Positions 22,364 to 26,773 of a stretch of 64,000 nucleotides of DNA are shown piece by piece. Each line of letters starts with the position of its first letter. Position 1 is the first letter of the stretch. Source of the stretch: an uncultured Thioalkalivibrio sp. (GTDB lineage Bacteria > Pseudomonadota > Gammaproteobacteria > Steroidobacterales > XN24); the NCBI GenBank assembly GCA_964462675.1, contig CAYWYS010000002.1, positions 42,110 through 106,109 of the forward strand, given 5' to 3'. The translations under genes were made by a program, and so were the position numbers. The notes beneath the pieces are model-generated. The model was not told the DNA's origin. It worked only from the letters and a program-made list of their open reading frames with translations, and did no database searches.

Positions 22364-24508
22364 TCAGTAAACGTCGTGCATCGTGTTGTAGATGTTGAAC
22401 TTGCCGGTGGGCGTGACGATGCGCGGGTCGTCGATGACGTGCTTCAGCTTGCGCGTCTTGTCGTCGACCACGACGATTGCGGAGCGCTGGTCCATGGTGT
22501 TCCACACCGAGAACCAGACCTCGTCGCCGGCCTTGTTGTACTCCGGCTGCACGACCCGTTTCGGCCCCGGACCCAGGTTGGCCCATTCGGCGATCGGCAG
22601 GACCACGAAGCCGGCCTCCAGGTCATTGATGTCGAACACCGCGATGCTCTGGCTGACCTTCTCGTCCGGGTTCAGCGGCGTGTCGACCCAGAGGTTCGTC
22701 GACTTGGGGTGCGTCTTGACGAACAGTGAGCCGCCGCCCTGCCCCTGCAACACGCGCACGACCTTCCAGACATGCTCGGCATGGCCCTGGGGGTCAGTCG
22801 CAATGAACGTGATGTCGGCATTGCCGAGCGCCGAGGTGATCCAGACCGGGCCGTACTTCGGATCATTGACGTTGGCGCCCCGGCCCGGATGGGGAATGCG
22901 CTCCACGTCGATCAGTGCCGCGAGCTTCTGCTCCTTGGCGTCGACGACGGCGATCTTGTCCGACTGGTTGGCCGCGGTCAGGAAGTAGCGCTTGGTCACG
23001 TCCCAGCCGCCGTCGTGCAGGAAGCGCGCGGCGCCGATCGTGGTGGTCTTGAGCGCATCGATGTTGCTGTAGTCGACCAGCAGGATCTGGCCGGTTTCCT
23101 TGACGTTGACGATGAACTCGGGATGCTCGTGCGACGAGACGATCGCCGCGACGCGCGGCTCAGGATGGTATTCCTGCGTGTCGACGGTCATGCCGCGCGT
23201 GGAGACGATCTTCAACGGCTCGAGCGTGTCGCCGTCCATGACCACGTACTGCGGCGGCCAGTAGGCACCCGCAATCGCGAAGCGGTCCTCGTAGCCCTTG
23301 TATTTCGAGGTCTCGACCGAGCGCGCCTCGAGGCCGATCTTGATCTCCGCGACGCGGTTCGGCGGGTCCGCCCACAGGTCGATCATGTCGATCTTGGCAT
23401 CGCGGCCGATCGTCATCGCGTAACGCCCGGAGGCCGAAGGGCGCGTGATGTGCACCGCGTAGCCGGTCTCGACGATGGAGACGATTTCCTTTGTGTCGCC
23501 GTCGATGATCGCGATCTCGCCCGAGTCGCGCAGTGTCACGGCGAAGAAGTTGTCGATGTTGCGCTTGTGCTGCGGGCTGGTCGGGCGCTTCTCCGGCGGC
23601 ACGAAGACCTTCCAGGAGGCGCGCATTTCCTGCATGCCGAACTCCGGCGGCGCCGGCGGCTCGTGCTGCAGGAAATGCGCCATGGCCTCGATTTCGGCTG
23701 CCGTCATGTCGCCGGAAGTGCCCCAGTTCGGCATGCCGGCCGGCGAGCCGTAGGTGATCAGCGCCTTGAGGTAGTCAGTCCCCTTCGGGCGGGTGACGTC
23801 GGGCGTCAGCGGCTTGCCGGTTGCGCCGTGGCGCAGCACGCCATGGCAACCCGCGCAGCGCTCGAAGTAGAGCTCGGTCGAACGCGCCCATGCCGCCTCG
23901 GTGATCGGCGGACCCTCGGAGTCGACCAGTCGGCGGGCCGTCTCAGGATCCATGCCCAGCGGCGCGCCCTCGTACTTGAGCGCTGCGGCGCCGGCCACCG
24001 GGTGGTCACCCGGGCCTGCAGCAGCAACCGGCGCGCCGCCACGCGCCTGCGCGACCTGCGCCGCCTGGATTTCACCGCCGGGGTTGTCCCAGTTGTTCAG
24101 CACGAAGGTCAACGCGTTGGCGATGTCGGCATCGCTGAGATATGCCATCGGCGGCATCACGGCATTGAAGTTCTGGCCGTTGACGACCAGCGGTCCGGAC
24201 AGGCCGTTGAGGATGATCTCGACGAGCCGGTCCTGGTTCGCGGCAATCCAGTCCGAGTTGGCGACGGGCGGAAATGCACCCGGCAGCCCCTTGCCCTCAG
24301 GTCCGTGGCAGGCCTGGCAGACGTTCTGGTAGACAGTGCGGCCCGCGGCGATTCGCTGGTCCTTGGACTGGCCCGCCGAAGCCACCTCAGCAGCGTGCAC
24401 TGCCGTCGCGGGGTCCGCCTTCGGCGTGGCGGCCTGCTGCTGCCTGGCCTCGCAGCCCGAGACCGACAGCGCGGCTAACAACGCCAATACTATCAGACGG
24501 ATAGACAT
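22364..24508 (-). CDS. nirS: Cytochrome cd1 nitrite reductase with a lipoprotein signal and an extra N-terminal cytochrome c domain
   Basis: '[21 protein letters not shown]', 'YWPPQ', 'VNVKETG', 'FLHDGGW', 'IPHPGRG', 'TPTGKFN'; a second CxxCH (CQACH) near the N-terminus; lipobox VSGC. Confidence 0.95.
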
Positions 24509-24526
24509 TACAATTCCTCCATTACA

Positions 24527-26773
24527 TCAAATACGCCCCGACCCGAAGCCGAGGTTGAACGAAACACTGATGCTGCGTCCCGGCGCGGACAGCGCGGGGA
24601 TCAGCGGGTCGCCTGCGGGTAGCCGGCGCACTTCGCCCCAGCGCCACCAGGTCTTGTCGCCAAGGTTGAACAGGCCGACCCGCAGCGACAGGCGCTCGGT
24701 CGCGTGCCAGGCTGCCGTCAGGTCGACGATGCCGTGTCCCGGGACGCGGAAATACGTTTGCTCCGCATCGCCCTCGCGGCGTTTGCCGCGCGCGAACAGG
24801 CCGCTGAGCCGCGCGTCCCACCGGCCGGAGGCGTCGGCCCAATCGAGAAACAGCACCGCAGACGCGGGACCCACTTCGTCGAGGTCCGCGCCGCTGCGCC
24901 GGTCCTCGCCGCTCGCCCAGAAGCCTGACACCCCCGCGCTGAATGCGTCGAGCGACGCCGCCAGGAGGCCGAGCGGTGCGCCGGCCTCGAATTCGAAGCC
25001 CTTGATGCGCGCCTTGTCGATGTTCTGCGACTGGAACAGCAGCGTGCCGGTGTCGGGGTCAGGCCCGAGCGGCACGAGCGAGACAATGAAGTCCTCGTAG
25101 TCAGTCCAGAAGCCGGCCACGCTGAGCCAGGCGCCGGCGACGTTCGCTCTGAAGCCCAGTTCCCAGCCGAGCGACGATTCCGATTCGAGCTCGGGGTTCG
25201 GCAGCGCGCGCGTCCGGAACAATGGAATGTCGAGGCCGATGTTCAGGTCCTCGGCCGGGGGCGCGCGAAATCCGCTCGCGACCTGGCCCCAGGCCTGGAA
25301 GTCGCGGGAGGCATGCCACAACGCGCCGAGCCGGGGGGAAACATCGCTGACCGTCTGTTCCGCGAGTTCCGCCTGCGGATTCGAGGCGCGCCACAGCGGG
25401 TCGTCACGCACCCGGATGCGGGTCTCGTCGAAGCGCAGCGCCGGGATCAGCGTCCAGCGCCCGGACGCGGCATCGATCTCGTCCTGCAGGAACACGCCCC
25501 ACTCGTCGCTGGTCGTAACCGGGAAGTCGCGGCGCGGGAACTGTTCGCCGAGCACCACATTGCTGCTCTGCCCGTCCAGCAAGCCGGTCTGCAGCGCATC
25601 GCGGAACTCCTCGATGCGGGTGCGGCCAAACTCGGCGCCGAGCATCAGCCGGTGGCGAACGCGTTCACTCGCATACTCGCGCGACGCGCGGGCGCGGGCG
25701 CCGCTGATCGTCGTGTCGTAGCGGAATTCCCGGTCGATGCGCACGGGCCGCGCGAGGTTCTCGCGCAAGTCGGCGGTGTCCTGGCGCGTGCGCGTCTCCC
25801 GATGGAACACCGCGCCATCGAAGTCCGTGCCGGCGCGACTGGCCTGGCCGTCGAGCGCGACGCCGACGCGCGTCGTGCGGTCGTCGCCCGCAAGGCCCGT
25901 CGTGCTGGCGAAGCGCCCCTCGCCCAGGAAACTGTTCATCTCCGACTTCGCCTCGTCCTCGTCGGCATCGAGCGTGAACCGCAAGCGCCCGCCCGCCCCG
26001 CCGGCCAGCGTCAGCTTGGCAAGCAGCGCGCCGCGGTCGCGGTCCAGCCGGTCGGGATTGGGCGGATCGGCCGAGCGGTCGGCCTCATGTCCCTGGCGGT
26101 AGCTGCCGCCGACGAGGAACCCGGCCGTCTCGCCCTGCCACGCGCCGATGGCGCTGGCGCCGAGCGCGTCCCAGTCCCCTGAGTACGTGCCACGCAGCTG
26201 GCCGCCCGGCAGGCCCGGGCCGAGCGCGAAGTCCTCCGGATCGAAGGTCGATACGGCGACCACGCCGCCGATCGCCTTTGAACCGTAAAGGCTGGAAGCC
26301 GGCCCGCGCAGCACCTCGACGCGCCGGATGAAGTCGAGCTCGGCGCCGGAGCGGCCCGCAAAGGCGACGCTGCCGACGGCGAAGCGCTCCTGGATCGGGA
26401 TGCCGTCGACTTCCATGACGATGCGGTTGCCGCCGATGCCACGAATACTCAGGCTGCGGGCCGAGAAGCGCGCGCCGGTCGACTCGACCTGGATGCCGGG
26501 CGTGTATCGCCAGAGTCCGTCCTCATTGGTCGCCATGCGGTTCTCGATGTCCGCGGCATCGAGGATCGTGACCATGCCGACGACTTCGCTCACCGGTCGG
26601 GGGCTGCGCGTGCTGATCACGACGACCGGCTCGAGCGTCAGGCGGTCCTCCTCATCGCCTGGGTCGGCAGCCTGCGCGGGGCTCGCGACCAGCAACAGCG
26701 CCAGCCAGCCTGCCGCGAGAGATCCCCTCCTCGCCCTGGCGAGCGGTGATGCCGGAGCCACGACAAGTGTCAT
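24527..26773 (-). CDS. TonB-dependent receptor of the heme/hemoglobin type
   Basis: TonB-box region 'LEPVVVISTR', plug 'IRRVEVLRGPASSLYGSKAIGGVV', 'GFRAPP...PNPEL' (FRAP/NPNL motifs), 'GLFNLGDKTWW'. Start inferred at ATG 26773. Confidence 0.9.
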   Translation of the reverse strand: MTLVVAPASPLARARRGSLAAGWLALLLVASPAQAADPGDEEDRLTLEPVVVISTRSPRPVSEVVGMVTILDAADIENRMATNEDGLWRYTPGIQVESTGARFSARSLSIRGIGGNRIVMEVDGIPIQERFAVGSVAFAGRSGAELDFIRRVEVLRGPASSLYGSKAIGGVVAVSTFDPEDFALGPGLPGGQLRGTYSGDWDALGASAIGAWQGETAGFLVGGSYRQGHEADRSADPPNPDRLDRDRGALLAKLTLAGGAGGRLRFTLDADEDEAKSEMNSFLGEGRFASTTGLAGDDRTTRVGVALDGQASRAGTDFDGAVFHRETRTRQDTADLRENLARPVRIDREFRYDTTISGARARASREYASERVRHRLMLGAEFGRTRIEEFRDALQTGLLDGQSSNVVLGEQFPRRDFPVTTSDEWGVFLQDEIDAASGRWTLIPALRFDETRIRVRDDPLWRASNPQAELAEQTVSDVSPRLGALWHASRDFQAWGQVASGFRAPPAEDLNIGLDIPLFRTRALPNPELESESSLGWELGFRANVAGAWLSVAGFWTDYEDFIVSLVPLGPDPDTGTLLFQSQNIDKARIKGFEFEAGAPLGLLAASLDAFSAGVSGFWASGEDRRSGADLDEVGPASAVLFLDWADASGRWDARLSGLFARGKRREGDAEQTYFRVPGHGIVDLTAAWHATERLSLRVGLFNLGDKTWWRWGEVRRLPAGDPLIPALSAPGRSISVSFNLGFGSGRI

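Follow-up and report, generated by a model that had tools for sequence, protein, structure and literature searches.

We analysed a stretch of 64,000 nucleotides of DNA from an uncultured Thioalkalivibrio sp. (contig CAYWYS010000002.1, positions 42,110 to 106,109; the whole stretch is referred to as the window), in which nirS, encoding a predicted cytochrome cd1 nitrite reductase, lies directly 3' of a gene whose product is an outer-membrane receptor, TonB-dependent and of the haem-receptor type. Both genes are on the minus strand, and the features of the pair, in the direction of transcription, are:

26859..26887, minus strand: promoter-like block, with TTGCAA (26882..26887), a 17-nt spacer and TATATA (26859..26864); sequence reading
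26770..26850, minus strand: upstream open reading frame (uORF) of 26 codons, translated as MNIHPKAPPARDQGIRGFRCASPFRV and a stop; its TGA overlaps the receptor ATG (ATGA)
24527..26773, minus strand: TonB-dependent receptor gene (open reading frame), 748-aa product, TGA stop at 24529..24527
26609..26635, minus strand: TonB-box-like LEPVVVIST after the receptor signal peptide, a TonB box by resemblance only
26261..26593, minus strand: receptor plug domain (Pfam)
24662..25939, minus strand: receptor barrel domain (Pfam)
25187..25270, minus strand: FRAP..NPEL extracellular loop of the receptor, FRAPPAEDLNIGLDIPLFRTRALPNPEL, the subfamily signature (alignments)
24509..24526, minus strand: intergenic spacer of 18 nt with a GGAGGA ribosome-binding site at 24520..24515; sequence reading
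22364..24508, minus strand: nirS (open reading frame and Pfam), ATG at 24508, 714-aa product
24452..24508, minus strand: NirS lipoprotein signal peptide, residues 1-19, lipobox LSVSG followed by C19
24020..24430, minus strand: extra cytochrome c domain of NirS, residues 27-163, CQACH (Pfam)
23669..23893, minus strand: canonical cytochrome c domain of NirS, CAGCH (Pfam)
22382..23560, minus strand: d1 beta-propeller of NirS (Pfam)
22321..22352, minus strand: intrinsic terminator 3' of nirS, a 13-bp stem with 12 G-C pairs, then TTCTTTC

The terminator hairpin has a folding energy of -39.4 kcal/mol (z = -2.2), and inside the receptor-nirS unit there is just one weak terminator-like match, in the 3' end of the receptor gene (24554..24536). 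The gene 5' of the receptor encodes a P-type ATPase and is divergent, and nirS is followed by msrB, msrA and a gene for an S9 peptidase. The initial annotation had read the series of receptor, 18 nt, GGAGGA, nirS and terminator as a two-gene unit; the coordinates and the folding of the hairpin agree with this layout, and the unit is kept across many taxa. The best explanation is that receptor and nirS form a single operon, turned on with denitrification.

Scanning for NirS in one genome per species gave 80 loci, each taken with 10 kb of flank on either side (loci are numbered with the prefix L). A receptor homologue lies directly 5' of nirS on the same strand at 48 loci and adjacent to it in another orientation at 4 more, which puts a receptor beside nirS in 52 of the 63 loci of NirS relatives with usable flanks and leaves 11 without one. 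The linked homologues are 34-73% identical (27% in Castellaniella). Carriers of the pair, which include dozens of bacteria from sediments and soda lakes, are found in Lysobacterales, Wenzhouxiangellaceae, Woeseiaceae, Marinicella (two isolates), Kangiellaceae, Oceanospirillales and Castellaniella, and in a metagenome-assembled genome (MAG) of Binatia. A search with the receptor found the pair in two further isolates, Thioalkalivibrio sp. XN279, which has the wider synteny of the window, and Elongatibacter sediminis, where an NsrR gene stands next to the order receptor-nirS-AlgE-like protein among housekeeping genes. The nirS genes of Woeseiales are transcribed in sediments (PMC7451513).

Adjacency of receptor and nirS is far beyond chance, and the possibility raised in the initial annotation, that the receptor is not conserved beside nirS, does not agree with this level of pairing. 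Some related nirS genes do lack a receptor, as would be expected if the two genes had come together meaninglessly, by hitch-hiking or chance, but the pairing of 52 of the 63 usable loci at receptor identities down to 34% is hard to reconcile with such an origin. Proximity is retained even where gene order is shuffled (L041, L048, L059 and L061), the window has an 18-nt gap and a single terminator, several related loci have boxes for FNR/Dnr regulators 5' of the receptor, and the receptors belong to a signature-defined subfamily exclusive to nirS neighbourhoods. Chance adjacency is effectively refuted by the conservation statistics. The pair also occurs outside Gammaproteobacteria, in the Binatia MAG (L073) and in Castellaniella (L067), suggesting that it has been transferred as a unit.

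NirS of the window reads as a genuine cytochrome cd1 nitrite reductase and is predicted to reduce nitrite. The Pfam domain Cytochrom_D1 covers residues 317-709, the eight-bladed d1 beta-propeller (1.8e-144), and is accompanied by two c-type cytochrome domains; residues 175-714 are ~70% identical to NirS of Pseudomonas aeruginosa (1NIR, 850 bits). Relative to 1NIR, and in P. aeruginosa numbering, the window protein keeps the Tyr10 arm, CAGCH with Met88, the proximal d1 ligand His182 (GYAVHITR) and the distal His327 (FLHDGGWD) and His369 (PHPGRGAN), and its AALKYEGA stretch aligns with the same structure. It also matches both of the motifs, LHD and PHPGRG, that discriminate NirS from NirN and NirF (supplement of PMC10999283). 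As all of the c-haem and d1 ligands are retained, NirS must need haem d1. We correct the initial annotation in that NirS of the window begins with the signal peptide of a lipoprotein and contains CxxCH in two domains. The extra cytochrome c domain is nearest to the cytochrome domain found at the C-terminus of copper nitrite reductases with three domains (3ZIY and 2ZOO, E ~1e-34), and is probably a tethered electron donor in place of NirM/c551. A predicted lipoprotein signal is common to many receptor-linked NirS proteins; in Pseudomonadales-type orthologues without the receptor, the signal peptide is of the ordinary kind.

To judge by its sequence, the receptor is a member of a distinct subfamily of haem-type (PhuR-like, FRAP/NPNL) TonB-dependent transporters. 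Pfam identifies the plug (PF07715, 8.5e-22) and the barrel (TonB_dep_Rec_b-barrel, PF00593, 1e-54). The best NCBIfam match is to the TonB-hemin model TIGR01785, at 284 bits, under its cut-off of 316.85, and the score against TIGR01786 is similarly under the cut-off (283 bits, cut-off 323.75). Among solved structures its best relative is that of P. aeruginosa PhuR (8THE), which matches over the full length with an E value of 1.3e-70 and ~29% identity. In 48 nirS-linked orthologues the extracellular loop has the consensus GFRAPPxEDxNIGLDIPLF..RAxPNPxLxSE, of which GFRAPP...PNPEL, comprising the FRAP and NPNL-type boxes, is invariant in the subfamily. The strict loop signature is present in 45 of the 52 linked receptors of the genome set, the remainder being close variants. 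Receptors of the window's subclade end in ...NLGF-GSGRI (24527..24544, minus strand, in the window), five residues past the terminal Phe with which most receptor orthologues end, as do outer-membrane barrels in general.

Haem receptors bind haem iron via a His of the FRAP/NPNL loop and a His of the plug, the loop ligand of PhuR being a Tyr (10.1101/2020.04.26.062984). In the window receptor, Asn511 aligns with the loop ligand (Tyr in PhuR, His in HasR), and this Asn is invariant in the 48 orthologues. The plug ligand position is occupied by Gly in the window and by Gly, Ala, Thr or Ser across the subfamily. Conservation analysis of the 48 sequences found no invariant His, Cys or Met at either canonical ligand site; one His, H374, is conserved in the subfamily, yet equally so in PhuR and all other relatives. 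The initial annotation had pointed out that there is no His between the FRAP and NPEL boxes, with which the loop alignment agrees, and had taken this as a sign of a ligand other than haem b. The second step is weak, as the same His-less loop is found beside HemS/ChuX and FecCD genes, and we have dropped the missing His as evidence for a non-haem ligand. The axial ligand pair may not define the whole haem-receptor family, as relatives in haem contexts are also without it.

With such relatives, the nirS-linked receptor could be an ordinary haem b or iron receptor that has come under denitrification control, the pathway being rich in haem and iron, with the d1 genes located elsewhere. This reading fits the source annotations of these proteins as haemoglobin, transferrin or lactoferrin receptors, and it draws support from PhuR as the best solved relative and from the occurrence of the loop motif in receptors beside HemS/ChuX and FecCD. 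Against it stand the two canonical haem-iron ligand positions, both unoccupied, along with the distribution and regulation of the subfamily described below, and we consider it unlikely.

For the converse test, metagenomes were scanned with the receptor alignment as seed, which yielded a gradient of relatives. Where the flanks on metagenome contigs are informative, nirS lies within 4 kb of the receptor in eight of eight cases with the nirS-type loop, and in none of four with a sister loop (N-x-G-F-T-N..FGY). The informative neighbours of the sister-loop receptors are DUF6607 (L099, L101 and L111) and, at L108, HemS/ChuX, a radical SAM gene and an ABC transporter. L102, a sister-loop receptor with short flanks, adjoins FecCD, and L104, with a third loop type, adjoins a CobN-like chelatase. 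Sister receptor subfamilies, with N-x-G-F-T-N..FGY or FRAPNYEEVN loops, have their own fixed partners, including the uncharacterised DUF6607 family. Because the sister subfamilies sit in tetrapyrrole-uptake contexts, the wider receptor family appears to carry tetrapyrroles.

When 1.84 billion cluster representatives were searched, scores fell off smoothly, with the nirS-type loop dominating the top ranks, and no score gap set the nirS-linked subfamily apart; its separation rests on the loop signature and not on score. Within the data examined the subfamily was seen only beside nirS. The initial annotation had suggested that nirS-adjacent receptors might form a group of their own, and they do so as a signature-defined set that is not found in ordinary haem-uptake loci. 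Among 1261 flanking proteins, which were clustered, there is no HemS, no ABC transporter or periplasmic binding protein and no haem oxygenase beside the nirS-linked receptors, and the branch reads as a discrete subfamily that has shed the usual partners for cytoplasmic delivery. A receptor for haem b or iron would be expected to have such partners, but no linked locus has a HemS, an ABC transporter or a haem oxygenase, and general iron supply fails to explain a subfamily that is confined to nirS even after transfer to other phyla.

Regulation of the receptor was assessed within 500 nt 5' of the gene, an FNR/Dnr box being defined as TTGAT-N4-ATCAA with at most 1 mismatch. Such boxes are present in 19 of 46 receptor loci, against a background of 4.2% (binomial p ~1e-14). 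No Fur box (at most 5 mismatches in 19) was found 5' of the receptor at any of the 46 loci, which counts further against an ordinary haem or iron receptor; the initial annotation had named Fur control as a mark of such a receptor. In the window, we infer a promoter from the TTGCAA-17-TATATA block, which a generic promoter scan did not flag. The block ends 8 nt 5' of an ATG at 26850, a position kept in the closest relatives (L002-L005, L026, L063 and L082), and the arrangement TTGCAA-17-TATATA-8-ATG suggests a leaderless-type start. The ATG at 26850 is the receptor start in the relatives, and the receptor ATG of the window is at 26773. The peptide of the uORF that begins at 26850 is homologous to the in-frame receptor N-terminus of relatives, and is out of frame in the window. 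Its ATGA overlap with the receptor may reflect translational coupling or a frameshifted N-terminal extension. The receptor protein predicted from this start region is identical on 9 independent assemblies, making a one-off assembly error unlikely. A riboswitch in the conserved receptor leader was considered and rejected, as there is no Rfam match and the block is the coding N-terminus in relatives.

The clustered flanking proteins have as recurrent members norC, norB, norQ and norD, a Crp/Fnr (Dnr-type) regulator, an Rrf2 (NsrR-type) regulator and a hemN-like gene. An AlgE-like outer-membrane barrel (PF13372, ~413 aa) is encoded directly 3' of nirS in at least 31 loci (for example L033:12116-13357 and L083:14567-15820) but not in the window; a channel for nitrite or nitric oxide (NO) is one conceivable role. 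Three Haliea loci (L075, L076 and L078) have a nirS with a single c domain, a NirI/NosR-like gene 5' of it and a divergent, unrelated TonB-dependent receptor without a FRAP box. In these loci an AlgE-like protein is encoded 3' of nirS, norCBQD is nearby, and no d1 genes lie within 10 kb.

Members of the TonB-dependent receptor superfamily carry zinc and other cargos, and the nirS-linked receptor might likewise transport a metal, a metal complex or a precursor such as sirohaem, or else act, along with the AlgE-like channel, as a docking site in the outer membrane for NirS with its lipid anchor. A docking role would suit the prediction of NirS as a lipoprotein in the window and many linked loci and the second outer-membrane barrel that follows nirS in at least 31, and another cargo would be in keeping with canonical ligand sites at which no His, Cys or Met is invariant. 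However, relatives of the FRAP/NPNL type are found in tetrapyrrole contexts, haems are the only cofactors that NirS needs, and the plug and TonB-box-like motif are intact, which argues for active transport. We regard another cargo or a docking role as rather improbable.

Genes for haem d1 synthesis were sought with NirF, NirDL, NirG, NirH, NirJ, NirN and NirC from canonical loci, all verified with NCBIfam (NirJ scores 644 bits on TIGR04051, and NirDL and NirH match sirohaem decarboxylase models). In tblastn searches of the window with these seven queries the sole match was nirS itself. Pfam scans of 30 of the ~45 other called genes of the window found neither a TP_methylase (NirE) nor a protein of the radical SAM or AsnC type, and several more genes annotated by synteny are likewise without them. 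The claim that the 64 kb hold no nir accessory gene is borne out by both kinds of scan. NirJ, NirDLGH, NirF and NirN are found in none of 63 receptor-linked loci (1.09 Mb in total, with 34 loci of at least 20 kb). The d1 genes are present in L050, L051 and L055, receptor-less nirS loci of Pseudomonadales type that belong to the same di-haem NirS clade. In L051 and L055, nirN-J-H-G-DL-F-C lies directly 5' of nirS, and in L050, nirC and nirF are ~9 kb 3' of it; the syntenic loci L042, L044, L046 and L053 end short of that position. Receptor and d1 genes exclude each other locally (Fisher p = 0.004 for the genome set).

We put the probability that the cargo of the receptor is haem d1 or a late precursor of it at roughly 50%. 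The receptor would spend TonB energy to move a tetrapyrrole over the outer membrane into the periplasm, and as its neighbours include neither an inner-membrane transporter nor a HemS-type protein or haem oxygenase, the cargo would be consumed there and not handed on to the cytoplasm. NirS binds haem d1 non-covalently and receives it in the periplasm, and in vitro free d1 can reconstitute apo-NirS. It is the likeliest cargo because it is the sole non-covalent tetrapyrrole that NirS needs and its insertion is periplasmic. Other denitrifiers would release haem d1, or a late precursor of it, for loading onto apo-NirS, which is predicted to be lipid-anchored in the window. Scavenging of haem d1 was the proposal of the initial annotation; the conserved unit, the receptor subfamily of its own, the FNR/Dnr rather than Fur boxes and the lack of local d1 genes speak for it, and the argument from the missing His falls away. 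It is possible, and we suggest it tentatively, that many carriers of the pair are true haem d1 auxotrophs, taking d1 from their neighbours through a dedicated receptor. With the same reservation, the auxotrophs would include Woeseiaceae, which are abundant in marine sediment, Wenzhouxiangellaceae, Marinicella and the soda-lake relatives of XN279. Alternatively, carriers may merely supplement a d1 supply of their own.

Several points weigh against import of haem d1. A recognisable FNR box is absent from the window and from the window's own subclade. The His-less FRAPPxxDxN loop is common to relatives in classic haem-uptake loci, and therefore the receptor has no positive sequence sign of d1 specificity. 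Four loci with related nirS genes (L009, L015, L018 and L043) have neither receptor nor d1 genes within reach, so both can be unlinked from nirS, and local absence is no proof of absence from the genome. The d1 genes may sit elsewhere, as the data cover local flanks; the same four loci thereby also count in favour of a haem b or iron receptor with d1 genes at a distance. Import would depend on free d1 being available in nature, and literature searches found no experimental precedent for its uptake.

The window also lacks nor and nos genes. Positions 41060..53179 hold a cluster for an Isp-type [NiFe] hydrogenase with maturation genes; its HycI-type protease and the hyp genes other than HypF were inferred from where they lie and from their N-terminal sequences. 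A RoxA-like and an AttH-like protein are encoded on the far side of the divergent P-type ATPase gene and an MscS gene, in the same arrangement as in Thioalkalivibrio sp. XN279 (L082). The features are:

30648..32051, minus strand: di-haem RoxA-like cytochrome c
32086..33168, minus strand: AttH-like protein
41060..42793: hydrogenase large subunit
42841..44169: CCG/4Fe-4S protein of the hydrogenase cluster
44843..46246: hydrogenase small subunit
49735..52113: HypF, confirmed by Pfam

The receptor resembles PhuR, HasR, ShuA and HemR in its plug and 22-strand barrel, its TonB-box-like motif and its FRAP and NPNL-type boxes. It differs from them in the unoccupied haem-iron ligand sites and in scores below the NCBIfam haem-receptor cut-offs, in having neither a Fur box nor phuSTUV, hemS or haem oxygenase neighbours, and in sharing an operon with nirS, often under control of the FNR/Dnr/NsrR type. 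Canonical nirS clusters have the order nirSMCFDLGHJEN in Pseudomonas and nirS-nirECFDLGHJN in Paracoccus. The window shares with these a close NirS orthologue, ~70% identical to that of P. aeruginosa and with all catalytic residues, but tblastn and Pfam scans found no nirF, nirDLGH, nirJ, nirE, nirN, nirC or nirM nearby, NirS has a lipoprotein signal and, towards its N-terminus, one more cytochrome c domain, and a receptor gene stands 5' instead.

Functional parallels may be drawn with importers of other cofactors. PqqU of Escherichia coli is a TonB-dependent importer of pyrroloquinoline quinone (PQQ), which serves the periplasmic glucose dehydrogenase, and PDB 9C4O, which we take to be PqqU, is among the structure matches to the receptor. 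The likeness would lie in scavenging, at the outer membrane, a cofactor that the cell may not make, for a periplasmic apo-enzyme. PqqU belongs to another receptor family (E 1.2e-6, in the plug region only) and carries another cofactor, and unlike the receptor with nirS, pqqU is not known to share an operon with the enzyme it serves. BtuB imports a tetrapyrrole cofactor, cobalamin, in a TonB-dependent manner; its cargo goes on to the cytoplasm via BtuFCD and it is riboswitch-controlled, whereas no known riboswitch was found at the receptor leader with Rfam. NosA/OprC, like the proposed d1 importer, provides for a periplasmic denitrification enzyme, N2O reductase, but the copper it supplies is a metal ion and not a tetrapyrrole. 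By analogy with PqqU, BtuB and NosA/OprC, its closest functional counterparts, the receptor-nirS pair may be a case of TonB-dependent cofactor piracy.

Full-text literature searches found no link between a TonB-dependent receptor and nirS, and no d1 uptake, auxotrophy or cross-feeding. The broadest NirS survey, by Pold et al. in 2024, counted helper genes no farther than 10 kb from nirS and makes no mention of receptors (PMC10999283). The receptor-nirS module is apparently real and undescribed. As a lead only, NirS is present in Wenzhouxiangella AB-CW3, a poor reducer of nitrite when grown in pure culture (PMC7691419), which might carry the receptor.

Even if the cargo were ordinary haem, there is a receptor subfamily tied to nirS and under FNR/Dnr/NsrR rather than Fur control, which is undescribed in the literature searched. 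If the cargo is haem d1, it would be a new one for TonB-dependent transporters and a rare case of periplasmic use of an imported cofactor. If the carriers are d1 auxotrophs as well, denitrification would gain its first known example of cofactor cross-feeding. The gene nirS is the standard marker for counting denitrifiers. Woeseiaceae and related groups carry nirS and are abundant, so that the ecological reach could be large. If many nirS carriers rely on haem d1 from other bacteria, pure-culture tests of them would understate their activity in nature, and a traded cofactor would govern nitrite reduction and the output of NO and N2O in sediments, comparable to vitamin B12 in plankton.

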